From a virus (Duplodnaviria; Caudoviricetes), in the IMG/VR virus record IMGVR_UViG_3300001838_000086, positions 1 through 58,154 of that record: a DNA stretch of 58,154 nucleotides; one strand, given 5' to 3'. The position numbers and the translations under genes are program-made. Each line of letters opens with the position of its first letter. Position 1 is the first letter of the stretch. This document shows positions 10,849-46,125 of the stretch, one piece after another. The notes beneath the pieces were generated by a model, which saw only the letters and a program-made list of their open reading frames with translations, did not search any database and was not told where the DNA came from.

Positions 10849-10873
10849 AAACTTATATATTTCCTATTTCCTT

Positions 10874-11080: not shown

Positions 11081-11355
11081 AAGTCAACCATTAAACCTTT
11101 GAGTACTTGCTCAACTACTGAGTTCTTGAGATTTCTGAGAACGCTTATATCGTTAACCTTAAATGGTGCACTTCTGAGTGTTTTCAAAAATATCATTGTT
11201 CTATATTGTGGGATTTTTACTTTGATGTTATTCATATCTGTCATGTCTACACATGAGGTCATGATGGATTCTATCTCACCAAAAGTTAAATCACTTTCAT
11301 ATTCAACAACTTCTCTTTTACCTTCCCAATCTATTTCAAAAGATTTCAGAACCAT
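10966..11355 (-). CDS. tail assembly chaperone (gpG-like)
   Basis: Between tail tube and tape measure genes; overlapped by an open -1 frame. Confidence 0.75.
   Translation of the reverse strand: MVLKSFEIDWEGKREVVEYESDLTFGEIESIMTSCVDMTDMNNIKVKIPQYRTMIFLKTLRSAPFKVNDISVLRNLKNSVVEQVLKGLMVDFPLSQFLEAWVTTIVGEDRDLMSSITSSQPSLAGTKNK
11074..11080 (-). other. -1 programmed ribosomal frameshift slippery heptamer C CCU UUA
   Basis: X XXY YYZ pattern in the correct phase; the -1 frame has a TGA just upstream and is open downstream. Confidence 0.7.
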
Positions 11356-11387
11356 GTAATAATACTATTACAGGGATTTAATAAACC

Positions 11388-12443
11388 TTACGTAGTATCT
11401 ACAGTAACTTTGGCTGTCTTTGCTTTATAGTTAAGTTCTTGATATACTGGTTCTACTGGTTCGATTCCTGTGATAGCAAAATCAGTGAAACTAACACCAG
11501 CTAATTCTATTTTTATTGATTTACTTCCATTAGTAAATGTTAATTCTAGTTCAGCAGTTCCTTCTGCTTTAGTAGATATGTTAGGCTCTCTAACTGAATT
11601 AGCACCCTTTCCTATTTGGGCTAACATTCTTTCATAGAGTTTCCAATCACTCCAAGCCACTTTAAATCTACCAGTAATATCGAGCATTCTTCTATATGAT
11701 GATGTTGCTTGGTTTGATGCTAATCCATATAATAATTCATTGTTAACTGTAAATGTTAAATCAGTGTCTTGAACTAATGTTATCTCAGTTGGATATGTAA
11801 AACCTACTGGAGTACCATCGGTTTGATCACCAGTTGTCAGTTTTAATTTTGCATGTGCAAATGTGTATGGATTTCCACATGTTATCGTTGGTGCTGAGAA
11901 TGATTTACTTGGTGCATTTTCAATACCAAATGCAAAGTCTGTTGATACATTAACTACATCATTAACTGCTGTAGATAATGATAAACTATTTAGCACACAT
12001 CCTTGTAGAGTTCTAACTTTATAATCAGTATGACCTGATACATATGAATCTTCACCAGTCTCAAATCCTACATCTATAGTCATACTCTCTGATATTTTTG
12101 GTGTGCTACCCTGTGTTAATCCACCATAAACACTTGGAGAACCAGCTGGTGCACCAAATATAGCCCTAAAAATATCACCTGAAGTTTCTGATCCACTTGT
12201 AACACTATCTGCTAAAACATAATTTACTGATATAGATCCACTCTGCTGTCCATATGCATATGCAGCTGTCTCAACTTGACCTAGTTTACCAAGATCTATT
12301 CTATTATTAGTTAATGATAAAGTACCAATAGATGTTTTTAATCCAAAAGCTCGGTTAATAGTTCCAGCGATTTCCCCAAAATTAGAGGTTTCCCAACCAT
12401 ACAGAATATAACCATGTGCACCAGTTCTGATGACTCTTGCCAT
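11388..12443 (-). CDS. major tail tube protein
   Basis: 351 aa; GWET near N-terminus, beta-rich, DITGRF; position after neck genes; own TATA upstream. Confidence 0.75.
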   Translation of the reverse strand: MARVIRTGAHGYILYGWETSNFGEIAGTINRAFGLKTSIGTLSLTNNRIDLGKLGQVETAAYAYGQQSGSISVNYVLADSVTSGSETSGDIFRAIFGAPAGSPSVYGGLTQGSTPKISESMTIDVGFETGEDSYVSGHTDYKVRTLQGCVLNSLSLSTAVNDVVNVSTDFAFGIENAPSKSFSAPTITCGNPYTFAHAKLKLTTGDQTDGTPVGFTYPTEITLVQDTDLTFTVNNELLYGLASNQATSSYRRMLDITGRFKVAWSDWKLYERMLAQIGKGANSVREPNISTKAEGTAELELTFTNGSKSIKIELAGVSFTDFAITGIEPVEPVYQELNYKAKTAKVTVDTT

Positions 12444-12474
12444 GTCTCTATTCGACTATCTTAGTATATAAATT

Positions 12475-12888
12475 TTAAGGATTAATAACCCTAAAGTCTA
12501 TAGTAATAATATGATTGAACATATTCCTCATTCTCTCGTTTCTAGATACAGAGTTTAACACCCTCAAATCTACGTATTCATCATAACCTCTTATATTCTC
12601 TTTTATTATTCTCATCAATTCTTTAATTATATCTGAATGTCTTTGAATATCCTGATACGTTCTTATGTCTAAATCTATAGTTATTTCATGTAAATGATCA
12701 CTACCATATAATCCATAATATGTTATACTTTCCTCTCTAGGAGTGATTATTATCTGATCTCGTCTATCATCTATAAGACCCGTTGTTCTTTTTCTCCAAA
12801 CAGCACTAACTTCTGGGGCTGGTGGTGCTGTCCAATTATCGTCTATAAGACTCTTAATCTTATCCAACATATCATAAGTTATTGTCAT
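12475..12888 (-). CDS. tail terminator/completion protein
   Basis: 137 aa, ITIDLDIRT strand pattern; directly upstream of tail tube. Confidence 0.55.
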   Translation of the reverse strand: MTITYDMLDKIKSLIDDNWTAPPAPEVSAVWRKRTTGLIDDRRDQIIITPREESITYYGLYGSDHLHEITIDLDIRTYQDIQRHSDIIKELMRIIKENIRGYDEYVDLRVLNSVSRNERMRNMFNHIITIDFRVINP

Positions 12889-13565
12889 TATGTTACACCT
12901 GATGAATACTGGTAATCTCCGCCATATTTAAAATTAACCCATGTATCGCCTTTACCATAACTACCTTCTGGGGGTCTCATATTCTTTGTTACCTCATTCC
13001 ATTCACCATCAGTCATATTTGATGGTCTTCTTCCTACATACCATATTTTACGAGATATTTTATATGCTATTTGATCAACTACCTTTTCTTCTAATTTGGT
13101 AACATCTGGGAAGCTTGTGCGACTCTCATAGTCATCACCGTAAACTTCTCGCATATATTCTTCTTGGGACATATTAGAAATTTTAACATCTCTAACCCAT
13201 ACTTTTATGGCTTCTATATTAGGTCTACATGAGGCTGGATATATTGCGTTTGAATAATATTCTGGTAATTCCTCATACTCGGTTTTAACTGACATTGGTT
13301 CTATATTATCTTTTAATAGATGATCTGGTGGTTCATCATAGATCTGTTCTTGTAGTCTCTGTCTTAATGCGTTTACTATTTGTTTACTATCATCCATGTC
13401 TTGTGGTAAAATAAATGGTCTATCAGATTTCATAGCAACCTTTAATTTGTACTGACCATTCTCTTCTACTATGTTAGTATTGATCGCCTGTCTATTAGTT
13501 TCTTTTTGTATTTCTAAACTATTCATAAAAGTCCAGAATTGCTCAATACTGAGTTTCTTAGGCAT
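12888..13565 (-). CDS. putative neck/tail completion protein
   Basis: Position; RPNIEAIKVWV...IAYKISRKI resembles phage neck proteins. Confidence 0.45.
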   Translation of the reverse strand: MPKKLSIEQFWTFMNSLEIQKETNRQAINTNIVEENGQYKLKVAMKSDRPFILPQDMDDSKQIVNALRQRLQEQIYDEPPDHLLKDNIEPMSVKTEYEELPEYYSNAIYPASCRPNIEAIKVWVRDVKISNMSQEEYMREVYGDDYESRTSFPDVTKLEEKVVDQIAYKISRKIWYVGRRPSNMTDGEWNEVTKNMRPPEGSYGKGDTWVNFKYGGDYQYSSGVT

Positions 13566-13567
13566 GA

Positions 13568-14206
13568 CTACGGTATGACAAATACTTCTCGTCTGTTTTC
13601 AATACAAGTTTCTATGTCTTCCTTCCAATCTCTTTTTACAGCATTCAGATCTACCATACCACCTGTAGGTACTTCATCCATTCTAAACATTGTATTCATT
13701 AGTTCTAAACATACCATTTTAATTATAGCATCTTTTACATCTGGTGGTATAATACCATCACCAGCTTCACTATCACCACCATATCTATATGTAATTCTTA
13801 ATCTAAATTCTCTAAGTGTTGAGAATAAGTAACCTCTGAAAAACAATTTACCCATCTCAGATTGTATACTATATGTAGAACTACCCTGTGCAGTAATATC
13901 TTCATAGTTACCACCCATACCAGACCACATCTCTACTTTATCACCTTCGGCTGAGTTTATAGGTAAAACCATTCTGTGTTTTAAATTAATAGGAGTACCC
14001 CAACCATAAACATAATTCAATGGTAAATCATAAACTTCATTTTTAGATTGTTTAATACCCCATGTATGACCTACTCTTCTTTCAAATTCTGCTTCTTTTC
14101 TTATGATTATTTTTTCTATCTGAGTTTTATTTGGGCTTGTTGTAGCAGTAATAGGAACTCTTAGATAATCACTAATATCCTCTATTGTGCAGTAAGTCGT
14201 TGTCAT
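13568..14206 (-). CDS. head-tail adaptor/connector protein
   Basis: YCTIEDISDYL N-terminus and ITYRYG...IPPDVKDAI motif. Confidence 0.75.
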   Translation of the reverse strand: MTTTYCTIEDISDYLRVPITATTSPNKTQIEKIIIRKEAEFERRVGHTWGIKQSKNEVYDLPLNYVYGWGTPINLKHRMVLPINSAEGDKVEMWSGMGGNYEDITAQGSSTYSIQSEMGKLFFRGYLFSTLREFRLRITYRYGGDSEAGDGIIPPDVKDAIIKMVCLELMNTMFRMDEVPTGGMVDLNAVKRDWKEDIETCIENRREVFVIP

Positions 14207-14240
14207 TAGTCTTATAAAGATTACGAAGTATTTAAATTTG

Positions 14241-14513
14241 CTATTTGTAAACTACGAGTGCTCTAACTGTTGCACTAGCACATGATACATAAATACCATT
14301 CTCAAACCTTCTATTCAGTTGAATATAACTTATAGGATGCTCTGAATGTATTGTAAATTCTATTGGTGCAGTTCCAGTAGTACCGTTTCTAAATACTAGT
14401 GTTGAATTATTATCATGAATCATTACATGAACTGCAACTACTACACCGTGATTGCCTTTTACTAAAGTATTAGCACCGTCTATATTCTTAATATTATGGT
14501 TATCTTCGACCAT
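14241..14513 (-). CDS. small virion protein
   Basis: 90 aa beta-rich, FENGIYV motif; own TATA upstream. Confidence 0.5.
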   Translation of the reverse strand: MVEDNHNIKNIDGANTLVKGNHGVVVAVHVMIHDNNSTLVFRNGTTGTAPIEFTIHSEHPISYIQLNRRFENGIYVSCASATVRALVVYK

Positions 14514-15121: not shown

Positions 15122-15685
15122 TTATGGGATTGCTCTAGAATAGAGTTTACCTTCTAATGCCATCTTATACATTTCTGCAACGTATGGGTTTTCACTTGGA
15201 GTTTCTGCACCAAGTTCAACCAGTCTAGCATACACTCTGACTACATAAGCCAAAGCACCCATGAAGGCAACTACAACTCCCATATTGAACATCCAATGGT
15301 TAGGCACTGCAAATATCTCTTCTACAAACCAAAAGTGCCACATTTCGTTAACACCAATGGTAAACATGGTTGCAAGATAACCTAGTATAGTCATCTTTAA
15401 TCCAGTGTTCATAGAGTTTCCTACACCTCTCAATATTGGTACTTTACGATCATAAATCGCAACACTACCCCAACCTAGAGGTAATGCTATGAAATGACTG
15501 TATAACCACCAATGAGCTGGTGTAAACGCAGAGTCCCTAATAGATGTTTGATGAAGTGAACCATCAACAAAGTTATCAACCTCTACAGAAGCAGCGGTTG
15601 ATCCCATCGCAATTACAATCAACCAAATTTTCTTCAGTCGTTGTATTTCCACTTCTTTTGGAATTAAGGCTGGAATCTGTGCCAT
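15122..15685 (-). CDS. amoC: ammonia monooxygenase subunit C (archaeal), auxiliary metabolic gene
   Basis: 187 aa MAQIPALIPKEVEIQRLKKIWL...EGKLYSRAIP, closely matching archaeal AmoC; D-x3-H-x12-H metal motif intact. Start taken as ATG 15685 rather than track start 15775. Confidence 0.97.
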   Translation of the reverse strand: MAQIPALIPKEVEIQRLKKIWLIVIAMGSTAASVEVDNFVDGSLHQTSIRDSAFTPAHWWLYSHFIALPLGWGSVAIYDRKVPILRGVGNSMNTGLKMTILGYLATMFTIGVNEMWHFWFVEEIFAVPNHWMFNMGVVVAFMGALAYVVRVYARLVELGAETPSENPYVAEMYKMALEGKLYSRAIP

Positions 15686-15737
15686 ATATACCATTAGTAT
15701 ATTAATTATATAAGTTTTAATTGTGACTAATGAGTAT

Positions 15738-16070
15738 TTAAGGATGTGGTGATGTTGAACATATTGGTTGAACATTCAGTCTTCGTTTTTTCTGATAGTA
15801 TTCTCTTTGATATTGTTTTATCTTATCCTTGTTTTCCTGATAGCGTTTTCTTTGAGATTCGTTTATTCTGTCCTTGTTTTCACGATTGTATTTTCTTTGA
15901 TACCTTCTTTGATATTCTTGTAACTTTTCTCTCATTTTATGATTGTTATAATATCTAAATAGGTGTCCACAGTTAGAACTACAAAACTTTTTTTTCTTAT
16001 AGTCGTTACATACATCACTTATTTCACTTTTACAATATAAACATCTTTTGATTGTTCTTTTCGATGACAT
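15738..16070 (-). CDS. Zn-finger / basic helical-repeat protein (resembles HNH N-terminus, no nuclease domain)
   Basis: CLYC...KKFCSSNC followed by YQR(E/K)Y repeats; ATG 16070 downstream of a TTATATA box. Confidence 0.6.
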   Translation of the reverse strand: MSSKRTIKRCLYCKSEISDVCNDYKKKKFCSSNCGHLFRYYNNHKMREKLQEYQRRYQRKYNRENKDRINESQRKRYQENKDKIKQYQREYYQKKRRLNVQPICSTSPHP

Positions 16071-25460: not shown

Positions 25461-25575
25461 ACTCTTTTTTTTATTATACTAACCATAACCTTTATCTACC
25501 CTTGTTTTGTACGCCGCCTTATATACTATGCCTATATGATAATCAAACCGACAGTATTATATGCTATGATGGATA

Positions 25576-25776
25576 TTGAGAAGTATGAATGAGCCAACTA
25601 CAAGATACAAGGAAACTTGTGGGCATATCTTTGTTTGCCCCAAGTGTGACACTCCTCTAATTGAGGATAAGAGGGCAAGAATGGAAACTAACACAAAGTA
25701 TGTCAAGTTCTATAATTGCCCCCATGATCATTCGTTTATCGAAACTTGGTCAAGGACAAACTTTGAGGAGTTTTAA
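25576..25776 (+). CDS. Zn-ribbon early protein
   Basis: CPKC...CPHDH; own promoter and T-tract. Confidence 0.65.
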   Translation: MRSMNEPTTRYKETCGHIFVCPKCDTPLIEDKRARMETNTKYVKFYNCPHDHSFIETWSRTNFEEF

Positions 25777-25918
25777 CCCTCTCTTTTTATTGTGCTATCA
25801 TAACCTTTAACTACCCTCATTATAGAGCAACCTTTATATACCCTTAGTTGTACGCGGGCGATTAGGCATATGGATAATCAAACCGATAGTGTTAAATAGT
25901 ATTATGGGTATTAGTAAT

Positions 25919-26253
25919 TAGTCAAGTAGTTCTGCTACTTGATTAGGGTAAAGTGGGTTTCTGATATTTCCCACTGTTTTCAGGCTTTAGAGAGTTGAAG
26001 CACCCGATAACTCTCAACTTAAAGTAATGGAGCTCTAGGTGGGTGGAATGACACCAAGGGCGGGCACACGAAAGAGGCAAGGAATGATTTCTGACAGAAA
26101 AGGGCTTCTTATCAGTGTGATAAGAACTGTTGTATGGTATGCAACAGAGCCCGCTACAAAGATAAGAGCTACAGCCAAAAGGCACAAGAACGAGGCGTTT
26201 ACAGCGTAGGCTATGGCTTACGGAAGTATAGGCACGCCTACCATTACTTTTTT
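25919..26253 (+). ncRNA. candidate ~330-nt highly structured non-coding RNA
   Basis: Early promoter upstream, T6 tract downstream, no credible ORF, many nested stems including AAAGTAATGG (26021-30) / CCATTACTTT (26241-50). Confidence 0.65.
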
Positions 26254-26265
26254 ACTATTCGCCCT

Positions 26266-26567
26266 AACCTTTATATACCGTTATTATTGACATACTCCAA
26301 CAACAACCTTTATATACCCTTATTCCAGACCAGAACCTTTATATACCCTCAGTTCGAACATAACCTTTATATACCGTCACTTTAGAGTTGTACACGCGAT
26401 TCGTGGTGGGGTGGCGATACCTTTATATACCGTTAAAAAAAAATAAAAACCTTTATATACCCTTGTATGAGCCATAACCTTTATATACCCTTGCTATGCC
26501 CATGTAGGCTATATATAGGTTTCGGTCTATTGTATAAAAAAAATACGATAGAAACCTTAATATACCG
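26266..26567 (+). repeat. array of AACCTTTATATACC(C/G) direct repeats (BRE-TATA-like / iteron-like)
   Basis: Copies at 26266, 26305, 26334, 26362, 26418, 26448, 26476, 26553; inverted variant ~26508-26522; further variants at 25487, 25802, 25829, 26709. Confidence 0.9.
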
Positions 26568-26780
26568 TTGGCGGTGCTGTATAGTATAGTATTCTAGGAA
26601 TCAATCAGATCTATTATATGACAATATTATTGTGAGTATAGTTATTGGTGTGTATTATAGTGGTTATAGTGATTATGTATGATACTGACTACGGGTTAGC
26701 GGGTGCGAAACCTTTATAAGCCCTTGTTTTTGCCGAAATCAAACCGAAGGCTTTAATAACTTTGACCGCGCAAAATCGCC

Positions 26781-28075: not shown

Positions 28076-28903
28076 ATGTGCGTTATCATTCTCTGTGAGA
28101 GAGAGTTTCCTAGTGTAGATACCTTGAAGAGTGCCGAAGCTATGAATGGTCATGGTGGTGGTATTGCTTGGGTAGATAAAACAGGCAAGGTTATGTATCA
28201 TAAAGCTCTAGGGGCTGATGAGATACAACATATAATAGAAACAGAAGCACAACTACCAGCCATAGTTCACTTCCGTATCGCTAGTATTGGTCATGTGAGT
28301 GATGAGTTATGTCACCCATTCCCAATCACAGATGATAGTGAGGTGTCTCTTAGTGGTGAGTGTGATAGTGTTCTATTCCACAACGGAACGTGGGGTGAAT
28401 GGGACACTCATCTATTGAGTGCAATCACTAGTGGTAAATTACCCATGCCAAAAGATACCAAGCATATGTCAGATAGTAGATGTATGGCATTACTAGCTAA
28501 CACATATGGTAAGAACATTCTTAACCTGATAGCTGGTAAGTCAAATAAAATTGCAGTGCTATCTATCAATGGCATAGAGAAGTTTGGTGAAGGCTGGGTC
28601 ACACACAAATCTAATACATGTAGCAACGACTACTTCGTAAAGAGAGAGACTGTGTTTACCTATGACCCAATGAGTAAGGCATACTCATATACAATAGCCA
28701 ACAACGACAACACACAACACCATAACAAGAAGAAGAAAAAGAAAGGTAAGAACAAAACCTTTCAAGATTATTCTTGGAAAGATTGGGAGTATTCCCTTAA
28801 CAATGGTAAAGACAATGACGTTGATAAAGACATGGCTATTAGTAATGCATATGATGAGTATTGTTCCATGTATGATAAGATGTATGAAGGTGGTCAACAA
28901 TGA
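28076..28903 (+). CDS. class II (Ntn) glutamine amidotransferase
   Basis: N-terminal MC nucleophile, NGHGGG, HFRIASIG, CHPF, FHNGT, SDS. Confidence 0.88.
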   Translation: MCVIILCEREFPSVDTLKSAEAMNGHGGGIAWVDKTGKVMYHKALGADEIQHIIETEAQLPAIVHFRIASIGHVSDELCHPFPITDDSEVSLSGECDSVLFHNGTWGEWDTHLLSAITSGKLPMPKDTKHMSDSRCMALLANTYGKNILNLIAGKSNKIAVLSINGIEKFGEGWVTHKSNTCSNDYFVKRETVFTYDPMSKAYSYTIANNDNTQHHNKKKKKKGKNKTFQDYSWKDWEYSLNNGKDNDVDKDMAISNAYDEYCSMYDKMYEGGQQ

Positions 28904-29178
28904 ATAGCACACAAATGATAGTTAACGCATTGATAGAGGCTGATAGTAAACTCTATTCATATCAATGTCCATACCTAGCACTAGCAGATGTGCTAGGTTA
29001 TATAACGCCTCAATGTATCCATGCTTTACCATCAAGATTTGGTCGCATATCTACCAAGCGTATGCTATTAAATTATGGGGTAGGTATAGCTAAGGCTAGT
29101 ATGATATGGAAGATGTTAGAGCATGGATACACATTAAAAGAAATAGCAGAAAAAATTAGGAGTGATGAATATGATTAA
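28900..29178 (+). CDS. hypothetical protein (HhH-like GVGIAKA)
   Basis: ATGA-coupled ORF. Confidence 0.55.
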   Translation: MNSTQMIVNALIEADSKLYSYQCPYLALADVLGYITPQCIHALPSRFGRISTKRMLLNYGVGIAKASMIWKMLEHGYTLKEIAEKIRSDEYD

Positions 29179-29365
29179 GAGAATAGAACCAACACTATAT
29201 CAGGCAGACAGTAAGTCTGACCCTGATCATAGTCATATCATATATCTAGATACCACTACTAATGAATGGATATGTGATTGTATCGGATATAAATACAGAC
29301 AGAGTTGTAGACATATCAAAGAGATACTATTAGATATAGGAGAAAAGAAAAATGAAACAAGTTAA
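29171..29365 (+). CDS. SWIM Zn-finger protein
   Basis: W.CDC.G..YRQSCRHI (CxC-xn-CxH). Confidence 0.8.
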   Translation: MIKRIEPTLYQADSKSDPDHSHIIYLDTTTNEWICDCIGYKYRQSCRHIKEILLDIGEKKNETS

Positions 29366-29501
29366 ATGTTCTCTATGCACTCAATCATTTATCATTGATA
29401 GTGATTTGGTAGATAGAATGAAAAGACATGAGCAATTCCATAGAGAGTATGGTGTAAAGAATCTAGTGCATGGTAATGTACAATGGAGTGTGATTGAATG
29501 A
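29352..29501 (+). CDS. C2H2-type Zn-finger microprotein
   Basis: Not in track; CSLC...HEQFH, 49 aa, fills the gap and is ATGA-coupled to next ORF. Confidence 0.6.
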   Translation: MKQVKCSLCTQSFIIDSDLVDRMKRHEQFHREYGVKNLVHGNVQWSVIE

Positions 29502-29683
29502 ATCTAACAGTCAATAGATTACGAACCTTTGATGAAGAGTTTGAATTGATAGATAAGAATCAAACCAAATGGAAAGTATATGAGATATGGGAAAAGATGA
29601 ATGAGTTCATGAATGATACTGATAGAAACAAATGGTTAAAAAAGACATTCAGCAACACACTAATTATATTGGGGGGTAGATAA
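29498..29683 (+). CDS. hypothetical protein
   Basis: Coupled ORF. Confidence 0.55.
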   Translation: MNLTVNRLRTFDEEFELIDKNQTKWKVYEIWEKMNEFMNDTDRNKWLKKTFSNTLIILGGR

Positions 29684-29687
29684 GAAC

Positions 29688-30197
29688 ATGAATATATTTG
29701 TGCTAGATAATAATCCCATATATTGTGCTAGGTATCATTGTGATAAGCATGTAGTTAAGATGATATTAGAATCTGCTCAGATGATATGCACAACACATAC
29801 AACAAATAAAAATAAAAATCTAAACTATACCATACCATACAAAGCAACACATATGAATCACCCATGCACTAAATGGGTAAGAGATTCATTAGGTAATTAC
29901 TTGTGGCTAATGGAATTAACTAAAGCATTGAATGATGAGTATAGATATAGATATAATAAAGATGTAGATCATAAGTCATGGTCTGCTATCAAAGATCTAC
30001 CGCTACCTAATATAAATAATATAGGTAGAACGTCTTGGGCTAGAGCTATGCCTATTGAATGTAAGATAGATAACACAGGTCAACGTGATACAGATGTGAT
30101 TGAATCATATAGAAACTATTACTCTACACATAAGAAAGATATACTATTCTATACTAAGAGAGATCAACCATCATGGTTATCACTAGGGGCGTATTAA
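29688..30197 (+). CDS. pyrimidine-dimer DNA glycosylase / endonuclease V-like protein
   Basis: MNIFVLD..HCDKHVVKMILESAQM..HMNHPCTKWVR..YRNYY signature. Confidence 0.8.
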   Translation: MNIFVLDNNPIYCARYHCDKHVVKMILESAQMICTTHTTNKNKNLNYTIPYKATHMNHPCTKWVRDSLGNYLWLMELTKALNDEYRYRYNKDVDHKSWSAIKDLPLPNINNIGRTSWARAMPIECKIDNTGQRDTDVIESYRNYYSTHKKDILFYTKRDQPSWLSLGAY

Positions 30198-30260
30198 ACT
30201 TGTACACGGAATCGCAGAAAAAAAACAGTCTTTCATTAGAAAGGAATAGGGGGTGATAGA

Positions 30261-30605
30261 ATGGGAAAATATGTAAACAGACCAGAGAACATGAATGTCA
30301 TAGTAGCTGAAATGGCAGATATAGGAATACTAACCTATAATGAAACCAGAGATGGCTATTATATATCTAAAAAAACATCTAGTATAATGACTGATATGGC
30401 ACATGACCACTATCCATTAAAAATCGCAGACCTAGTTGATATACTAGTAGAATTTAATGTGAGAGATGAATCAGCCGTAATAGATTACGCACATGTGCTA
30501 TATCAAAGCATAAAAAAGTTTGAGAGAAAAAATGATATGCCGAATGGAATAATGGAGTCAATCAAAACTACAAAGAAGAGTCATACTGACGAGGCTTTAA
30601 AATAG
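30261..30605 (+). CDS. hypothetical protein (3' end overlaps hammerhead 1)
   Basis: 114 aa; GGGGTGA SD-like site upstream. Confidence 0.65.
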   Translation: MGKYVNRPENMNVIVAEMADIGILTYNETRDGYYISKKTSSIMTDMAHDHYPLKIADLVDILVEFNVRDESAVIDYAHVLYQSIKKFERKNDMPNGIMESIKTTKKSHTDEALK

Positions 30606-30633
30606 CCGAAACCAATTTTTATTGGTCTATGAC
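30580..30633 (+). ncRNA. type I hammerhead ribozyme 1 (predicted cleavage after C30627)
   Basis: Stem I GTCATA/TATGAC; core CTGACGA; stem II GGCT/AGCC; GAAA; stem III CCAAT/ATTGG; GUC cleavage triplet. Confidence 0.9.
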
Positions 30634-30778
30634 ACAATACAAAAGAATTGATAGGTTCAACCTCAAAGTCATGATTAATGATGATGAGGTTGCACATATG
30701 TTATCAGATGATGCTTTTGCAAAAATCTCTGATATTATATGGGAAGATTTGAATCTTTATGATGGAGTGAGACAATAG
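30629..30778 (+). CDS. acidic microprotein (49 aa) starting 1 nt after the ribozyme cut
   Basis: Not in track; MTQYKRIDRFNLK...DGVRQ*; fills the gap to the next ORF. Confidence 0.65.
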   Translation: MTQYKRIDRFNLKVMINDDEVAHMLSDDAFAKISDIIWEDLNLYDGVRQ

Positions 30779-30780
30779 AT

Positions 30781-31053
30781 ATGACATATGAAGATGACTC
30801 CTATGGTATAGAAGAACAGGACAGAGAATTAATGATGAGATGCTCTGCTTATATGCCACAATGGGTAAAAAACATAGGTGAATATCTAGGTGAAAAGGCA
30901 AAGTGTTATGGAAGACCAATAAGAGAAGACGATTTATCAACAGAACACTTATACATGGATTGGGAAAACGGAAATCATGAATCAAGTAGATGTATAAGAT
31001 GTGGGTTGAGTGAAGACATAGATATGTCTAAACACTATGGAGATGATTGGTAG
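30781..31053 (+). CDS. hypothetical acidic protein
   Basis: TAGATATG junction; H..CIRC. Confidence 0.6.
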   Translation: MTYEDDSYGIEEQDRELMMRCSAYMPQWVKNIGEYLGEKAKCYGRPIREDDLSTEHLYMDWENGNHESSRCIRCGLSEDIDMSKHYGDDW

Positions 31054-31055
31054 AT

Positions 31056-31328
31056 ATGAAGAAAGAAATAAGTATGACGACATTAGGCAAGTGGGCAAAA
31101 GACGGTGAAGAAGTTCACTTCATAGACACTCCAAATGGTAAACTAGTGGTATTCAATCCACATAGATTCGTATGGAATGCATATGGTAGAGAGTCAGTTG
31201 ATAGGGATAATATACTATCAGATGAACAATGGTGTGACTTCATATCAGAGAGTAGTATATATTTAGAACTACCTGATGATGCATTTCAAGATCAGCTTGA
31301 AGAATACTTGAAGGAACAGGAAGAATAG
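31056..31328 (+). CDS. hypothetical acidic protein
   Basis: TAGATATG junction places ATG at 31056. Confidence 0.6.
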   Translation: MKKEISMTTLGKWAKDGEEVHFIDTPNGKLVVFNPHRFVWNAYGRESVDRDNILSDEQWCDFISESSIYLELPDDAFQDQLEEYLKEQEE

Positions 31329-31330
31329 AT

Positions 31331-31618
31331 ATGACAAAGAAAGTATTTTGGAAAGGAAAACTAAAGTGTCCTAATTGTAGGCAATACTCTGTAATAAGGG
31401 GTAAGTTTGGGGCTCATTGCACAAATAGATGTGGTATCAATGAGTGTGACAAATGTCTTTTGATAGACCATTCAGAAGAACTGATATGGATCACATCAGA
31501 TGACTTTGAACCACGAAGAAATGAACATGTCCCAGAAAAAGCATATGAGACATATGATGCACTATGTGAGGACTGCTATCTATCAATCCTAGTAGAACCA
31601 GAGGTGATATATCCATGA
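31331..31618 (+). CDS. Zn-finger protein
   Basis: Four Cys pairs. Confidence 0.65.
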   Translation: MTKKVFWKGKLKCPNCRQYSVIRGKFGAHCTNRCGINECDKCLLIDHSEELIWITSDDFEPRRNEHVPEKAYETYDALCEDCYLSILVEPEVIYP

Positions 31619-31803
31619 TAGAATTACTAAAAGGTGAAGGTGAAGTCCCATTACTATGTCCTATATGTGAAGCAGATATAAATCAGACTGATGAAACATG
31701 GGAAGGTGGATATATGATAAGAGAGTTCACTTGTCATGGTGATGGTCATCATAGATTCACAGAACTATGGAAGCCTGTTAATTGGCAACAGGAGGAACAA
31801 TAG
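31615..31803 (+). CDS. Zn-ribbon microprotein (paralogue of 32281-32445)
   Basis: CPICEADI...R.F.CHG...H.F.E. Confidence 0.65.
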   Translation: MIELLKGEGEVPLLCPICEADINQTDETWEGGYMIREFTCHGDGHHRFTELWKPVNWQQEEQ

Positions 31804-31805
31804 AT

Positions 31806-32111
31806 ATGGGATATATTGTAATAGGATTGGGATCAATAACCTACAGCGGAAAAAAGACTAACGAAAACCTAGCATATAGATACATAAAGAAAGTCTTTGA
31901 AGGATCTAAAAACGAATACTTCAATATCAAACATGATAAGTGTTCTCATACATTTGAAATGTCTGGAAATAAAGGAATAGATTATGAAGACATGGATAAG
32001 ATACAAGATTTCCTACATTCACTAAGAGTGAAGTATGAAATAGTTGTCAATGAGTTTGTTGAATCTGGTGACTATGGATTCTATGTTAACTCGGAGGATG
32101 GATATATATGA
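31806..32111 (+). CDS. hypothetical protein
   Basis: TAGATATG junction preceded by GGAGG. Confidence 0.6.
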   Translation: MGYIVIGLGSITYSGKKTNENLAYRYIKKVFEGSKNEYFNIKHDKCSHTFEMSGNKGIDYEDMDKIQDFLHSLRVKYEIVVNEFVESGDYGFYVNSEDGYI

Positions 32112-32278
32112 CAAAGAAACTAAAGTTCATAGTCACATTTGCACCAATAGAAATTGAAGCCAGCTGTGGTGCTTTTGCCATAGAAGAAGCAATAGATACA
32201 TATAAGGAAATGATAGAAACTAAAAACTCTTTTTATTGGAGTGATATAAAATTCGAAAGAATTGAGGAGGAAGAATAG
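32108..32278 (+). CDS. hypothetical microprotein (56 aa)
   Basis: Not in track; MTKKLKFIVTF...; ATGA overlap and GGAGG upstream. Confidence 0.6.
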   Translation: MTKKLKFIVTFAPIEIEASCGAFAIEEAIDTYKEMIETKNSFYWSDIKFERIEEEE

Positions 32279-32280
32279 AT

Positions 32281-32445
32281 ATGACATCAGTGTTAAAATG
32301 TCCTATATGTGAGGCAGACATAGACTGTGAAGATGTTGCAGATGGAATAAACATAGTGAGGATATTCTTTTGTCATGGAAAACCACAACATCAATTTGAT
32401 GAAATAGATATGTATATGTGTTGGGATGAGGAACAAGAGATATGA
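32281..32445 (+). CDS. Zn-ribbon microprotein (54 aa)
   Basis: Not in track; LKCPICEADIDC...RIFFCHGKPQHQFDE. Confidence 0.65.
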   Translation: MTSVLKCPICEADIDCEDVADGINIVRIFFCHGKPQHQFDEIDMYMCWDEEQEI

Positions 32446-32771
32446 AGATAGATATATGCACTAAGTGTGGTATAGAGTTTTGGCTAGGTGACAGCCAAGA
32501 TGGTAAATGCCCCAGCTGTTTCCAACAAGAAGTTAGAAAGAGTGAGGAAACGGAACGAGCCACAAAATACAGATATGATTGTGGTATATGTGGTGGCATT
32601 TATTGGATACCAGAAAGAGAAGATGAATGCCCAAAATGTAAAGACAGTGAATATGAAGAACAAGAAATCACAGAGTATAAATATGAATGTGGCGACTGTG
32701 GTTGTTATTATTGGGTTCTAGACAGAGACGAATTTGAATGTCCAAACTGCAAAGATAAAGAGTCATACTGA
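32442..32771 (+). CDS. triple Zn-ribbon repeat protein
   Basis: Three CxxCG..(F/Y)W....CPxC units; stop TGA lies in the hammerhead 2 core. Confidence 0.75.
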   Translation: MKIDICTKCGIEFWLGDSQDGKCPSCFQQEVRKSEETERATKYRYDCGICGGIYWIPEREDECPKCKDSEYEEQEITEYKYECGDCGCYYWVLDRDEFECPNCKDKESY

Positions 32772-32816
32772 CGAGCCTTTATATTAGGCGAAACCAAATT
32801 TATTTTGGTCTATGAC
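32762..32816 (+). ncRNA. type I hammerhead ribozyme 2 (predicted cleavage after C32810)
   Basis: Stem I GTCATA/TATGAC; CTGACGA; stem II GCCT/AGGC; GAAA; stem III CCAAA/TTTGG; GUC; compensatory changes relative to copy 1. Confidence 0.9.
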
Positions 32817-33045
32817 ACAAAAACAATATGAAGTCGAATTTACCAGAGAGAATGTATCAACATTAACTTTGGTAGTCGAAGCAAAAACAGAAGAGGAAGC
32901 AATTAAAATTGCTAGAAACGAATCATTATCTGATTTATTTAAAGATAATAATTCCTCTCCTCAAAACAAAAGTATAGTAGAATATGATGTTAGCACAGGT
33001 GGGTATCAAATATACTTCAACGGTGCTAATGAGGTGGGACAATAG
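32812..33045 (+). CDS. small protein starting 1 nt after the ribozyme cut
   Basis: MTQKQYEVEF..VEAKTEEEAIKIA, a common phage small-protein pattern. Confidence 0.7.
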   Translation: MTQKQYEVEFTRENVSTLTLVVEAKTEEEAIKIARNESLSDLFKDNNSSPQNKSIVEYDVSTGGYQIYFNGANEVGQ

Positions 33046-33047
33046 AT

Positions 33048-33158
33048 ATGATAAGTAGATGTTTCAAATGCAAAGATAAGTTTGAGCATAGGTTTGTCAA
33101 CACTCATGTATGCCCAGAATGTGAATGGCAGAAAGCCATGAGAGGTAGAAGACTATGA
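33048..33158 (+). CDS. Zn-ribbon microprotein (36 aa)
   Basis: Not in track; CFKC...CPEC; TAGATATG junction. Confidence 0.55.
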   Translation: MISRCFKCKDKFEHRFVNTHVCPECEWQKAMRGRRL

Positions 33159-33526
33159 TGTTGAGTTGTGACTATGTGCCAAAAGAAGATGCCATTGAGT
33201 ATTGTATAGAGAATCACGAGGAAGCTATGATAGATGCTGTAAGAGAACACTATCGTAAAGAAATAATAAGCGACCTAGTGACATACAATAGAGATGAAGT
33301 TGTCAAGGCACTAAATCAAACCAAAACGCTTAAGTATAGGATATGGTATAAGAAAACATTGAAGCAGACAGGAATGCCTATCTGCGTACAAGATGTAGCC
33401 ACAGGTCTTATAACCTTTACTAACGAATTTAAGTTAGAGGGTTGTGAAATAAGAATCGCCTTTGAGAATTCTCATGGTGCTTCTAAAGCTTGTGGGGCAA
33501 CGACTATATTAGAGGTGTATGTATAA
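33155..33526 (+). CDS. hypothetical protein
   Basis: Coupled ORF. Confidence 0.6.
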   Translation: MMLSCDYVPKEDAIEYCIENHEEAMIDAVREHYRKEIISDLVTYNRDEVVKALNQTKTLKYRIWYKKTLKQTGMPICVQDVATGLITFTNEFKLEGCEIRIAFENSHGASKACGATTILEVYV

Positions 33527-34437
33527 TGAAATCGAAAATGAAAGAGACACGAATAGAAATCCCAACACAGACTATAAACTTCGAGCAGTACGACCCAAGA
33601 AACCTTGTTAATTGGGGTGAGTATATAGAAGTTGGTGATGAGATGAAACTTCTAGAGATGAACATCAAAGAAGCTTCAATCCCATATATTATAGAAGGTG
33701 ATAAAGGGACAGGCAAAACCCTAATGGTGCATACAATATGTAGGAAAAACGGATATGCTCTATTAGAATACAGTTGTTCTAATGGAACAAACAAAGGTGA
33801 CTTGATAGGTAGAGTTCAGATAAATGAGAATGGCTCATTCTTTGAACTAGGTATACTACCACTAGCCTATGAGATAGCAAATCACTTTGGCTTCTGTGTT
33901 CTATATCTTGATGAACTAAATGCAACAGAGCATGAGGTCATGAAGTTAATGAACAGACCAACAGATAAGAGGCGTTCTGTATTTGCCAATGGAAAACTAT
34001 ACAAGCTCAATGAGGGTTGTAAGTTAGCCATAGTGGGAACTATGAATCCACTAACATATGCAGGGGTTAATTCTCTAACAGAGGATTTGAGAAGTAGATT
34101 CATAGGTGATATAATCACATACCCAACATCAAAGCAACTACAAACAATCATATCTTGGGAAGGCATACCAGAGGAATCTGTGAAGAATCCTTTGCTACAA
34201 TTAGCACAAGAGACAAATGCATTGAGAGTCAAGGGTGATATAGATTATGTCTTATCGCCTAGAGATATTGACCAATTCTGTGAGCACTATCGAATACTCT
34301 CTAAGAGTAAAAAGTTTGAAGAGCCACAGGTATTGAAGTATGCATTGAAACAAGTTGTCCTTGTTAAGTATGCAGAGCTAGAAGAAAGAGAACTAGTCAA
34401 ATCTAGAATAGTAGATATATTCGGAGTTGAAATCTAG
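33526..34437 (+). CDS. MoxR/CbbQ/NirQ-family AAA+ ATPase
   Basis: Walker A GDKGTGKT, DLIG, Walker B LYLDELN, GTMNP, LRSRF, SPR. Confidence 0.9.
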   Translation: MKSKMKETRIEIPTQTINFEQYDPRNLVNWGEYIEVGDEMKLLEMNIKEASIPYIIEGDKGTGKTLMVHTICRKNGYALLEYSCSNGTNKGDLIGRVQINENGSFFELGILPLAYEIANHFGFCVLYLDELNATEHEVMKLMNRPTDKRRSVFANGKLYKLNEGCKLAIVGTMNPLTYAGVNSLTEDLRSRFIGDIITYPTSKQLQTIISWEGIPEESVKNPLLQLAQETNALRVKGDIDYVLSPRDIDQFCEHYRILSKSKKFEEPQVLKYALKQVVLVKYAELEERELVKSRIVDIFGVEI

Positions 34438-36159
34438 ATGGCACGAGATAGAGAAATACTCTCAGATAAAGAAATGATGAGAAGTGTTCTAGATATTGTA
34501 GAGTATCTAAAGGATTGTAAGGTCGGTATAACATTCTTTAGTGGTGAAAACTATGTAAAGAATACTATCGAAACCCCCAACATTTTTACTATTAATATAG
34601 CTACGCCAGCAATACCAAACATTGACAAGTATACAGCGTTAGCTCATGAGTGTGGACACATATTAGGTGAGACACCTATGAGTGCATGTAAGAAGTTATT
34701 AAATAGATGGGTAAAAGAATTCAAATATAATGATGGGACAACGCCATTAGTTAAGAGACTATACTCTTATTATTTCTCATGTTTTAATGTGATAGAAGAC
34801 CAGAGAATAGAATACTATGTAGCTAATTATCTATGGCGAAATTACATAAAGAAGTTTAACACGACAAGACGAAAGCTTGGTGAAGATATGCAACATGCAG
34901 ATAGTCCTATTGAATGGTTATTAGCAGAGAGATTCATAAGACCTGAACTAGTTCCTAATGAACATAAGGAAATAATTTCAAGTGTTATAAAGAATGTGCA
35001 AGGCACTAGTAAGTGGGGGGCATTAAAGATGATGGTCATTCTAAAGCCCATACTAGATGAATGGTTTAAGAGAAACTATGAACTCATAAATGAAACGCCT
35101 ATAATCCCAGAGACATTCGGTAATGAGAGAACAGCTGAACACATTAGACAAGACATACAAAATGCTGGTAGACAACATGATGATAGTGAGATGGAACTAA
35201 CTGATGACTTTGGTGAAGACATAAAAGAGATGATGGCTAGTGGTAGTAGTATTGAAGAGATACTTTCAGATGATAAGCAACAACAGGCATATGAGATAGA
35301 AGAACTACAAGAAAGAATGTCACAGATAATCAAACCACAGTTAAGAAGAGAGTTCAAATATGTGGATAGAAAAGCAGTAAAGACTGAGATAAGATACAAT
35401 CATGATTTAGCTCTTGGTCTTAACAAACTATTCAGAAAAGTTAGTGAGAAGTGGAAAGATGACATTGATTATACAGGAGAGGAAGTTAGTGTTGAAACAT
35501 ACATTGAGAACTTGGTGCAGGGTAAAGATAGAACTAAGTCAATGGTCTCAAAGAAATTAGATAAGGGTCTATCAATACTATTATCAATAGATGCTAGTGG
35601 GTCAATGGACTTCTTAGATAAGATAGATAATGTGAGGGCACTAGTGAAGACTCTATACAAATCAATAGAAAATATAGATAACATAAATCTTAGTGCAGTT
35701 GTCTGGTCATCAGATAGCAACGGTATAGTTGGCATACAACACATAGATAGTATAAAAGATATAGAAAAGATAGCGACTATCGGTGGGTCAAAACTAACAC
35801 CAACTCATCTTGCATTAGAATATTCTTCAGAAAAACTAATGAAGATGAAAGGTAGAAAGAAGTTATTGATAATGATAACTGATGGTATACCAGAATATAG
35901 AAGTAATCAGTTTCTTATACCAATAGGAAACATGATTAAGATGTGTAAGAAGTCTTATGCTTATGCAAGACGAAAGACACCCAACATGGTATGCTTGTTA
36001 ATATCAGATAGGTCATCATCAAGAACTAGAAACACTTCACCATATACAATCATGAAACAAATCTTTGGCAAAAAGGTTATAAATTGTAGTAATGTCAATG
36101 ATGCAAGTGAAAGAGTTATTAAAGAGTTCAAGTTTAATGTATTGAGGGCACTACAATGA
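34438..36159 (+). CDS. VWA (MIDAS) domain protein with N-terminal HExxH, CobT/NorD-like partner
   Basis: LAHECGH, FNVIEDQRIE, DASGSM, TPT, ITDG. Confidence 0.88.
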   Translation: MARDREILSDKEMMRSVLDIVEYLKDCKVGITFFSGENYVKNTIETPNIFTINIATPAIPNIDKYTALAHECGHILGETPMSACKKLLNRWVKEFKYNDGTTPLVKRLYSYYFSCFNVIEDQRIEYYVANYLWRNYIKKFNTTRRKLGEDMQHADSPIEWLLAERFIRPELVPNEHKEIISSVIKNVQGTSKWGALKMMVILKPILDEWFKRNYELINETPIIPETFGNERTAEHIRQDIQNAGRQHDDSEMELTDDFGEDIKEMMASGSSIEEILSDDKQQQAYEIEELQERMSQIIKPQLRREFKYVDRKAVKTEIRYNHDLALGLNKLFRKVSEKWKDDIDYTGEEVSVETYIENLVQGKDRTKSMVSKKLDKGLSILLSIDASGSMDFLDKIDNVRALVKTLYKSIENIDNINLSAVVWSSDSNGIVGIQHIDSIKDIEKIATIGGSKLTPTHLALEYSSEKLMKMKGRKKLLIMITDGIPEYRSNQFLIPIGNMIKMCKKSYAYARRKTPNMVCLLISDRSSSRTRNTSPYTIMKQIFGKKVINCSNVNDASERVIKEFKFNVLRALQ

Positions 36160-36422
36160 ATGAGAAAAACAAACTAATAAAGAAGATTATGGGTATTGAG
36201 AAACAGATATTCATAAGAGCCTCACTATCAACAGAGGAAGAACTACAAAAAAGAGATACTGATAACTTGAAAAAGTATTATCGTTCTTGTGAAATAGTAA
36301 AGGAAACAAGTAAAAACATAATACCAGATCATGCTGAATGTTCTAAGTGTGGAAGGTTTCTAGCAAAGATAGAAGCACCACAGGGAATCTGTTATGATTG
36401 TGAGGGTAAGAAATGGTTCTAA
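36156..36422 (+). CDS. Zn-ribbon protein
   Basis: CSKC...CYDC. Confidence 0.6.
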   Translation: MNEKNKLIKKIMGIEKQIFIRASLSTEEELQKRDTDNLKKYYRSCEIVKETSKNIIPDHAECSKCGRFLAKIEAPQGICYDCEGKKWF

Positions 36423-36637
36423 GTGATAGGGAAAAATACCTAATACATAAATCCATACTTACTTTAATGGCTAGTCTTGGTCAACTACCAGATGGATCAT
36501 TAAAATTAATTCTACCTAAGATTATGAATATGAGATGTAGAAAATTAACACAGGCTGAAGTGACAGAATTAAATGATGATTTGTTAGAAGAGTTCATGCT
36601 CTCCACAGGATTATACAAAGACTTTAATAATATATAA
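36413..36637 (+). CDS. hypothetical protein
   Basis: Coupled ORF. Confidence 0.55.
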   Translation: MVLSDREKYLIHKSILTLMASLGQLPDGSLKLILPKIMNMRCRKLTQAEVTELNDDLLEEFMLSTGLYKDFNNI

Positions 36638-45566: not shown

Positions 45567-45809
45567 ATGGCAAGGCGTAAAATTGGTAACTCACATACAA
45601 CTATCAGTATTAGTTGGGCTGATAAGGAAGAGTTTAGAAAATTAGCCAAACTAGTTAAGAAGACTAGAAACGGTGATATGTATGAAAGTGATTCCGTAAT
45701 CTTCAAAAGAGTATTAGATCACTATAAAGCAACTAGTAATGATACTGGTTCTACTGCACACCCAACTTACCCTGTTAAGGTTTCTCCAGCACATGACCAG
45801 CAAGGTTAA
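45567..45809 (+). CDS. RHH-like DNA-binding protein
   Basis: HTTISIS..helix..ESDSVIFKRVL. Confidence 0.55.
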   Translation: MARRKIGNSHTTISISWADKEEFRKLAKLVKKTRNGDMYESDSVIFKRVLDHYKATSNDTGSTAHPTYPVKVSPAHDQQG

Positions 45810-46125
45810 ACTCTCTGGGTATCCATCTTATTTTTATTTTATTAGTCATCATTGATTGACATTTTTCCCATAGTGGTAGAAGTGATTCAGTAGTAACTCT
45901 CCATTTACCATTCATCTGTTTTACTACAAGCATAGAATCTGAACATATTTCTACATCAGCACACTTGTACTTGTCACGAATATAACCAAGTGCATACATT
46001 AGGGCTAGGTATTCAAGTTCATTATTGGTTGGCTTACCACCCCTATATTTTACAGCGACATGAGTGCCATCAACCATGCATATATTGGAGTGTCTTGTAC
46101 CACCATCTATATAAATCTTAACCAC
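45775..46125 (-). CDS. ribonuclease HI-like protein
   Basis: IDGG, TNNELEY, SDSMLVVKQMNGKWRV, WIPREFN. Confidence 0.88.
   Translation of the reverse strand: MVKIYIDGGTRHSNICMVDGTHVAVKYRGGKPTNNELEYLALMYALGYIRDKYKCADVEICSDSMLVVKQMNGKWRVTTESLLPLWEKCQSMMTNKIKIRWIPREFNLAGHVLEKP

Follow-up and report, generated by a model that had tools for sequence, protein, structure and literature searches.

Two type-I hammerhead ribozymes cutting one base before start codons in a tailed virus of probable ammonia-oxidising archaea

The locus and its two hammerheads

We analysed a virus record of IMG/VR (IMGVR_UViG_3300001838_000086; Duplodnaviria, Caudoviricetes) over its full 58,154 bp, called the window below. 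The record represents a whole tailed virus, with a CheckV completeness estimate of 93%. Our subject is a pair of hammerhead ribozymes, HH1 and HH2, that lie on the + strand amid co-oriented, tightly packed open reading frames (ORFs); the genome holds exactly two of them. Both sit in an accessory island of about 3.3 kb, which also contains all of the small ORFs that flank them (Table 1).

Table 1. Coordinates of the ribozymes, the ORFs around them and the island that holds them, as positions in the window
Feature	Position	Strand	Remarks
Hammerhead 1 (HH1), type I	30579-30634	+	Cut after C30627; core and three helices, fold, covariance model R1
Hammerhead 2 (HH2), type I	32761-32817	+	Cut after C32810; core and three helices, fold, covariance model R1
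RNA released by double cleavage	30628-32810	+	2,183 nt; nine tightly packed small ORFs
Nine ORFs of the released piece	30629-30778, 30781-31053, 31056-31328, 31331-31618, 31615-31803, 31806-32111, 32108-32278, 32281-32445, 32442-32771	+	From the ORF list
First ORF after HH1, 49 amino acids	30629-30778	+	AUG is bases 2-4 of the 3' cleavage product
First ORF after HH2, 77 amino acids	32812-33045	+	Start codon at bases 2-4 of the 3' product; Shine-Dalgarno sequence lacking
ORF upstream of HH1, 114 amino acids	30261-30605	+	Shine-Dalgarno sequence GGGGGUGAU
Last ORF of the block, 109 amino acids	32442-32771	+	Several CxxC pairs; from the ORF list
Strain-specific accessory island	30200-33525	+	Between the Pyr_excise gene (29688-30197) and the cobS-like gene (33526-34437)
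17-nt cistron-junction motif GAGGAAnAATAGATATG, repeat family D1	30767, 31317, 31792, 32267, 32428, 33034	+	Shine-Dalgarno sequence, stop and start; six copies within 30767-33050

Both hammerheads overlap the end of an ORF. The last nine codons and the stop of ORF 30261-30605 run into HH1, with the stop codon within loop II and stem II. The last codons of ORF 32442-32771 cover stem I and the core of HH2, and the stop UGA of this ORF is the UGA of the CUGA core. The two upstream ORFs enter their ribozymes in different frames.

Each copy reads, in order, GUCAUA, CUGACGA, stem II, GAAA, stem III and C, followed by the cut and UAUGAC. Both hold the full core: CUGACGA, GAAA, the A15.1-U16.1 closing pair and C17. 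In the minimum-free-energy (MFE) and centroid folds of both copies, stem I is open and stems II and III are capped, the arrangement of type I. The MFE fold is a three-way junction of -14.4 kcal/mol in each case, with z-scores of -3.5 (HH1) and -3.3 (HH2). A strict core pattern matched the genome twice, against 0.00 matches expected from 100 shuffles and none with a backwards control, so that a chance origin of both motifs is excluded.

We built a covariance model, R1, from an alignment (A2) of 43 other viral and metagenomic type-I hammerheads. HH1 scored 65.5 bits (E 7e-16) and HH2 62.9 bits (E 4e-15), while the next best site of the window reached 14.1 bits. The 43 members had been retrieved by patterns that fix the core, which they share by construction, and had also been filtered for stem I pairing; helices II and III, the flanking A/G..C/A residues and the loop II consensus were not selected for. 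Across the set, pairing was 99.4% in helix II and 95.3% in helix III, with a covariation score of 0.90 (versus 0.18 when shuffled). Neither copy reached an Rfam gathering score: RF03152 (RAGATH-1 hammerhead) gave 24.9 bits for HH1 and 23.5 for HH2 against a gathering score of 56.3, and RF00008 (Hammerhead_3) gave 17.7 and 15.9 against 48.5. In the A2 class, stem I is fixed at 6 bp with conserved A's on either side (AG-NNNNN ... NNNNN-CA), and loop II follows the consensus CTTTAATAG. Judged from these sequences, the A flanks and the loop may make a tertiary contact that the Rfam models miss; contact of stem I with loop II is what hammerheads require to cleave fast at low Mg2+.

The similarity of the two copies covers about 80 nt and extends into flanks outside the ribozyme; their longest identical stretch is at most 18 nt. 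Stem I (GUCAUA/UAUGAC) and the four bases that follow it (ACAA) are identical in both. Two base pairs differ in a compensatory manner, one in stem II (G-C versus C-G) and one in stem III (U-A versus A-U). Two contigs that are 98-100% identical to the window, G001 and G002, each keep one ribozyme: HH1 of G001 is changed only at N7 (C to U) and at one loop II base, and HH2 of G002 is identical. Core, fold and R1 score confirm that both elements are genuine hammerheads, on the same strand and with an identical stem I, as a first-pass annotation of the locus had proposed.

By its gene content the window would belong to the marine thaumarchaeal tailed viruses, whose hosts are ammonia-oxidising archaea (AOA). 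Pfam identified a large terminase, a tail tube protein and, below threshold, a portal among the tailed-virus genes. It also identified an MCM helicase and a RadA/Rad51 recombinase of archaeal type, an AAA_5 (cobS-like) and VWA gene pair and a pyrimidine-dimer glycosylase. An AmoC homologue (PF04896, E 6.5e-13) lies amid the structural genes at 15122-15775 (-); it is an auxiliary metabolic gene and points to an ammonia-oxidising archaeal host. The host is assigned from amoC, MCM and RadA. The best terminase match among named phages was a haloarchaeal tailed virus. A peptide-pattern search with RadA for relatives or the host matched 65 stretches and yielded no relatives, and blastn of 29600-33600 against named phages gave three short, chance-like matches over 2-3% of the query.

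For none of the nine ORFs between the ribozymes did Pfam, PHROGs or PADLOC give a family that passed the cut-off. Two of their Pfam matches were sub-threshold, and ORF 32442-32771 matched one PHROG of unknown function (E 6e-4). Several of the products are Cys-rich and zinc-ribbon-like. ORFs 31615-31803 and 32281-32445, which are linked by a repeat (D6), are paralogues that encode small zinc-ribbon-like proteins (CPICEADI ... CHG ... H).

Environmental RNA at the cut sites

The RNA data were the assembled contigs of four metatranscriptome runs (X1-X4) from one study, whose libraries may hold DNA. These runs contain 75-89% of the sampled words of 30400-33100. We mapped their contigs to 29800-33800 and did not count contig-free parts of this stretch as absence of RNA.

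None of the contigs in the four runs crossed 30627/30628 or 32810/32811. Contig ends in X1 and X3 fell at 30626 (X1), at 30628 (X3) and at 32810 (both runs). In X2 and X4 the upstream contigs stopped short of the sites, at 30595 and 30456 on the HH1 side and at 32743 and 32650 on the HH2 side. After HH1, contigs resumed at 30655, 30655, 30775 and 30831; after HH2, they resumed at 32829, 32833, 32833 and 32847. RNA contigs covered 30655-32810. The DNA records run unbroken across the cut sites: the window across both, G001 across HH1 and G002 across HH2. Because contigs stop at the cut sites, none bridges them and the DNA runs through, cleavage is very probable: this is good indirect evidence that both ribozymes act on natural transcripts, and excision of the segment between them is likely. 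Breaks induced by the repeated sequence are argued against by the shared stretches of at most 18 nt, since contig overlaps span 30 letters. The environmental RNA is thus consistent with cleavage in situ. One X3 contig that ends at 30628 carries nine further letters that match nothing.

In every one of the four runs contig depth was discontinuous at the two sites, and in three of them it rose past both. In X1 the depth was 602 before 30183, 14 over 30243-30626, 93 over 30775-32474, 10 over 32445-32810 and 430 after 32847; these values are one figure per contig and a poor gauge of RNA level.

The coordinates and the ORF list agree with the first-pass annotation that double cleavage frees a piece of nine small ORFs, and the contig ends fit this piece. 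The annotation went further and pictured it as a retrozyme-like RNA able to circularise: a stable 2,183-nt circular mRNA or a vehicle for cassette exchange. In such a scheme stem I of HH2 would pair with the 5' end made by HH1, and the joint would be closed by the host's RtcB or by the reverse reaction of the ribozyme. Several features suit such a circle. Cleavage leaves a 5'-OH and a 2',3'-cyclic phosphate, ends that RtcB joins (PMC8051266, PMC12135372). The identity of stem I and of the next four bases would let the ends dock, and because of it the joined ends would rebuild a hammerhead. Retrozymes circularise in a like manner, as one account of them describes (PMC5680766), and the end at C32810 is joined to other RNA in two contigs, so that either the end is ligatable or an artefact acts there.

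Other observations count against a circle. The 32810|30628 joint of a circle and the 30627|32811 joint of a splice were each seen in none of the four runs, where only contigs could be searched and rare forms may drop out, and the contigs that leave 32810 go elsewhere. The first 27-200 nt of the released piece had no contig in any run; a linear 5' end fits this gap, with the same proviso on rare forms. Relatives neither gain nor lose the block at the ribozyme boundaries, and the ends would be held by 6 bp only. For tandem phage hammerheads, Perreault et al. 2011 (PMC3088659) had already raised the idea of circles or spliced RNAs, looked for them and detected none. We found no reverse transcriptase or RNA ligase domain among the 80 ORFs scanned with Pfam, in line with the annotation's remark that no reverse transcriptase is visible. 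ORF 45775-46125 (-) matches Pfam RVT_3, a family described as reverse transcriptase-like; the match covers an RNase H fold only, and the ORF lacks a polymerase domain. The circle is therefore unsupported by the contigs of the four runs. A minor circular species is possible, and as an account of the locus the circle seems improbable to us.

Two contigs have a joint whose donor is exactly C32810. One, from X1 (depth 9.9), runs from 32445 to 32810 and then again over 32445-32474, which makes a 366-nt cycle. The other, from X3 (depth 32), runs from 31144 to 32810 and continues at 33512. Position 32445 directly follows the AUG of ORF 32442, and 33512 is the start of a GAGGUG Shine-Dalgarno sequence 14 nt before the cobS-like AUG. 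No ribozyme core was seen upstream of 32445 or 33512 by eye or with R1 across the window; an Rfam scan of 30400-33000 at E values up to 10, which covers 32445 but not 33512, found no ribozyme that would make the 32445 end. These joints could equally be RtcB-type ligation in vivo or template switching of reverse transcriptase, an artefact. A bolder proposal would be that the host's RtcB acts in vivo on the cyclic phosphate of C32810, which would explain both of these joints.

The retrozyme label was rejected. The ribozymes are type I and not type III, the repeat is about 80 nt, the 2,183-nt RNA is densely coding, no reverse transcriptase domain was found and the genome is that of an archaeal DNA virus. 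Known retrozymes, as described in the source cited above (PMC5680766), share with the window two direct hammerheads that release an RNA whose ends rebuild a hammerhead and can be ligated. They differ in that their hammerheads are type III within long direct repeats, their RNA is non-coding and 600-1000 nt long, and they reside in eukaryotic genomes and depend on the reverse transcriptase of a retrotransposon; none of these traits applies to the window. Of the earlier interpretation, then, the ribozymes, the excised piece and the chemistry of its ends held up; the circle, the retrozyme label and the ribozyme-bounded cassette did not.

Start codons at the cuts in two virus lineages

Both cuts fall one base before an AUG (30629 and 32812), so that each 3' product begins 5'-HO-U-AUG. 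The AUG of ORF 30629-30778 lies within the 3' strand of stem I, without a Shine-Dalgarno sequence or a promoter upstream, and this ORF is conserved in G001. In the + unit 28076-36637, 18 of the 23 genes have a Shine-Dalgarno sequence of at least 4 nt (consensus GGAGG/GAGGTG). The five that lack one include both ORFs that follow a hammerhead, and these also have no promoter. The first 17 nt after cleavage are predicted to be unpaired for both ORFs.

The diverged allele of ORF 32812-33045 in G002 bears on the start. It is 34% identical (E 7e-9), aligns from residue 2, keeps the stem-I AUG and has no alternative in-frame start upstream of the conserved part. Since a diverged allele keeps this AUG and is similar from residue 2 onward, ORF 32812 truly starts at the stem-I AUG.

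The virus has a regular promoter architecture genome-wide (for example at 3854, 12443, 14513, 19012 and 45484 (-)), and internal genes bear GGAGG or GAGGTG. Among 37 pairs of a TTTA[AT]ATA-like 8-mer and an ATG-led ORF, the spacing was 21-22 nt in 18, and 16 of the 18 best promoters were spaced 19-23 nt from the ATG. Because the TATA-like box sits 21-22 nt before the ATG, this spacing implies that the first genes of the transcription units would make leaderless mRNAs. A scan for sigma-70 promoters and intrinsic terminators gave 19 promoter-like sites versus 24.1 expected; these are bacterial signals, and the virus is archaeal. Where gene orientation switches, at 25488-26722 (+), lies an array of a 13-mer, ACCTTTATATACC, with eight exact copies and variants. 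The 13-mer has 20 matches genome-wide versus 2.85 expected. The array resembles the virus's own promoter box in repeated form; a replication origin (iterons) and a set of binding sites for transcription factors are both possible roles.

The A/U-rich loop II (CTTTAAAATA in HH1, CTTTATATTA in HH2) might itself serve as an archaeal TATA box at a distance of 25-26 nt from the AUG, from which the downstream RNAs would be transcribed, with the ribozyme only trimming read-through transcripts. The loop of HH1 scores 7.1 bits on a promoter matrix derived from the virus, rank 107 of 116,268 positions, and depth rises past both sites in most of the runs. Against this, true promoters score 11-16 bits and the HH2 loop less than 2.8, and the spacing exceeds the norm by 3-4 nt. 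The same loop consensus recurs in bacterial-phage hammerheads of the class, so the loop sequence belongs to the ribozyme. We largely rejected the loop as a TATA box; a promoter within the ribozyme is highly implausible.

The reading that we favour, and hold to be fairly probable, is that the hammerheads punctuate a polycistronic transcript and so yield leaderless-type mRNAs and RNA segments that accumulate independently. The two ribozymes lie at two cistron junctions of a rightward polycistronic unit within the accessory island. The transcript would fold, and each ribozyme would cut itself after C17. The upstream RNA would then end in HH1 with a 2',3'-cyclic phosphate, the middle RNA with its nine ORFs would end in HH2, and the downstream RNA would begin at 32811 and extend into the cobS-like and VWA genes. 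Before the cut, the start codon would be paired in stem I and without a Shine-Dalgarno sequence; the cut would put the AUG one base from a 5' end. Cleavage would thereby turn an untranslatable internal cistron into a leaderless-type first cistron, and the three segments would accumulate independently. The ribozyme anatomy, the contig ends at the predicted sites, the lack of Shine-Dalgarno sequences and the leaderless promoter layout are observations; we infer that translation of ORFs 30629 and 32812 requires the cut or gains from it, and that processing underlies the differences in segment abundance.

Alternatively, the cuts may serve stability only: they would uncouple the decay of the three segments, with a folded hammerhead and cyclic phosphate on the 3' ends and a 5'-OH on the 5' ends altering susceptibility to host exonucleases and setting the stoichiometry of early proteins, and the adjacent AUG would be incidental. 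The sharp change of depth at both sites in every run favours this possibility, to the degree that per-contig depth, which reflects RNA level poorly, can do so. Such a role has been proposed for bacterial hammerheads and twisters, in the relevant passages of a review (PMC6765202) and of Perreault et al. 2011 (PMC3088659). Stability alone would leave unexplained why both following ORFs lack a Shine-Dalgarno sequence in a unit where most genes have one, and why the AUG is 1 nt from the cut in both copies. It would also leave unexplained the same placement at 15 of 16 hammerheads in an unrelated lineage of the same host family, described next. We consider it unlikely, while giving it some weight.

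We scanned viral and metagenome contigs with patterns for type-I hammerheads. The scan yielded a contig, L075, whose first 6 kb is colinear with the Nitrosopumilaceae spindle-shaped virus BK067789.1, at 60-90% amino-acid identity. L075 has eight hammerheads within 6 kb, and another three, three and two occur in the related contigs L078, L106 and L121, which makes 16 in total. An ATG stands at +1 to +3 after the cut in 15 of these, 14 of which were listed with ORFs of 49-113 amino acids. In the remaining one a GTG stands at +1, stem I has a C that compensates for the change, and a homologous ORF has an ATG there. The eight hammerheads of L075 span 8323-14512; five are clustered within 1.1 kb, each flanking one ORF of 49-91 amino acids. 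The start codon there is always 0-2 nt past the cut, and cobS-like and cobT-like genes lie near, like in the window. The array had no blastn match among named phages.

The same placement was found at 1 of 16 hammerheads in the other multi-hammerhead contigs examined. In a less biased set of 48 distinct hammerheads it occurred at ten, seven of them from the window and L075 lineages. A universal rule that the stem-I ATG of viral type-I hammerheads is a start was rejected: the placement is near chance in bacterial-phage contigs, and one contig, L083, is a counterexample. Its Pfam match starts at residue 13, after AAGGA, so that the stem-I ATG is probably not the start.

That two unrelated virus groups of one host family share the placement argues for a function linked to the host. 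We tentatively propose, as a possibility less probable than the reading of the window itself, that viruses of Nitrosopumilaceae use hammerheads as operon punctuation that makes leaderless mRNAs. The 3' strand of stem I would be the start codon, and the cut would unmask an AUG 0-2 nt from the new 5' end for the mode of initiation that the host uses at first cistrons. The tailed amoC virus and the spindle-shaped relative would have converged on this device.

A number of points weigh against punctuation of this kind. The hammerheads of the window are shared only with the near-identical G001 and G002 and are not conserved, and none was found in the three published Nitrosopumilaceae spindle-shaped virus genomes that we scanned. 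A stem-I ATG also occurs in bacterial-phage hammerheads where the true start is further downstream. Translation of the upstream ORFs crosses the ribozymes and could hinder their folding. All of the RNA evidence consists of contigs from a single study with possible DNA in its libraries. Contigs also break away from the ribozymes, for example at 30183-30250 and 32156-32485. Cleavage could have occurred after RNA extraction, in Mg-containing buffers, and internal promoters could be the source of the depth jumps. In Saccharolobus solfataricus a leaderless mRNA with a 5'-OH gives a weaker initiation complex than one with a 5'-triphosphate, according to the part of a study that treats these ends (PMC11698992). 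The same part holds that the triphosphate mimics a base at -1; in the virus of the window, a real U is present at -1.

A strain-specific island, known systems and significance

The accessory status of the locus is apparent from relatives. L142, whose MCM is 73% identical, has 0.9 kb at the island locus, without a hammerhead and without a homologue of any block ORF; L004 and L005 likewise lack the island content there. We found no hammerheads in L142 or in the more distant relatives L004, L005 and L143-L147 and the whole contigs G003 and G004. Because they are absent from relatives and from the published spindle-shaped genomes, the hammerheads are dispensable for these virus groups. With the three published spindle-shaped genomes free of them, the ribozymes are, by comparison of genomes, accessory in both lineages.

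G001 and G002 each swap a single ORF. In G001, 30790-31042 is replaced by an unrelated Cys-rich ORF of 77 amino acids; in G002, the divergence of the ORF 32812-33045 allele spans 32820-33032 and starts where the shared 3' flank of HH2 ends. Such swaps in near-identical relatives start or end at GAGGAAnAATAGATATG junctions, and one starts at the HH2 3' flank. Exchange of cassettes does occur, and looks like DNA recombination at short conserved junctions. The first-pass annotation had suggested cassette exchange, to be checked as gain, loss or shuffling of the block at the ribozyme boundaries; relatives instead lack the whole island or differ by single-ORF swaps. The island edges lie away from the ribozymes, which argues that the block is not a ribozyme-bounded unit.

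These swaps bear on one further possibility: a hammerhead unit of about 80 nt may have reached two junctions in a hypervariable island by duplication or recombination and persist there as a short conserved site where DNA recombination shuffles ORF cassettes, a selfish element or passenger whose RNA activity brings no benefit. The shared 80 nt with their flanks, the different frames in which the upstream ORFs enter, the divergence of G002 from 32820 on, precisely where the shared flank ends, the confinement of the ribozymes to one strain cluster and the single-ORF swaps at short conserved junctions would all fit. The island boundaries, however, are not at the ribozymes, and the start-codon placement is systematic in the second lineage. 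Moreover, the changes between the copies and in G001 are only neutral or compensated, which suggests selection on the fold. A mere passenger is thus quite improbable, and we retain the punctuation reading.

A protein-based parallel to punctuation by ribozymes is found in mitochondria, where RNase P and RNase Z cut polycistronic transcripts at tRNAs and so produce leaderless mRNAs. There too a structured RNA between cistrons is removed and the mRNA starts at or near the AUG; the cutting is done by protein or ribonucleoprotein enzymes, as opposed to a self-cutting RNA. Closer in kind are the multi-hammerheads that flank genes in prophages, for which Perreault et al. 2011 (PMC3088659), in the sections that concern them, proposed a role in processing of phage polycistronic RNA. 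The window shares their arrangement, with at least two hammerheads on the coding strand of one viral polycistronic transcription unit around a block of variable small genes. The prophage cases are bacterial, whereas the window has a probable ammonia-oxidising archaeal host, a cut 1 nt before an AUG that lacks a Shine-Dalgarno sequence, and RNA ends at the cuts. The same work describes a hammerhead of the haloarchaeal viruses HF1 and HF2 that lies 13 nt ahead of a start codon, with a transcript 5' end mapped at most 3 nt from the cut. Points in common with the window are a tailed archaeal virus, an early polycistronic unit and an ORF shortly after the ribozyme. The HF1 and HF2 hammerhead differs in being single, with high-salt core insertions and 13 nt to the start, as against two canonical cores and 1 nt.

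A tie between cleavage and translation has been described in eukaryotic RNA viruses. The passages of Lopez-Galiano et al. 2026 (PMC13725137) that deal with type-I hammerheads in 5' untranslated regions report that these are required for cap-independent translation. The chrysovirus and fusarivirus elements resemble those of the window in being type I, upstream of an ORF and with cleavage tied to initiation without the usual 5' signals; they differ in host and genome (eukaryotic RNA viruses versus an archaeal DNA virus) and in a ribozyme well upstream of the ORF versus a 1-nt leader. For bacterial hammerheads, a role in differential stability or translation is suggested and still undefined in the part of a review that covers them (PMC6765202).

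Our literature search found no published natural leaderless mRNAs made by ribozymes and no hammerheads of thaumarchaeal viruses. The hammerheads described here appear to be the first reported from viruses of ammonia-oxidising archaea, although the alignments of Perreault et al. (Dataset S1) may already include some from marine archaeal viruses. What appears to be new is the placement at the start codon and the host group; multi-hammerhead processing in prophages was already known.

The purpose of many phage and prophage hammerheads has been open since 2011, and for one host group the window suggests an answer that is concrete and can be tested. If the link to translation is true, it would be a parallel in archaeal DNA viruses to the ribozyme-dependent translation of eukaryotic RNA viruses, and the element would be a compact tool for the expression of internal cistrons in archaea.

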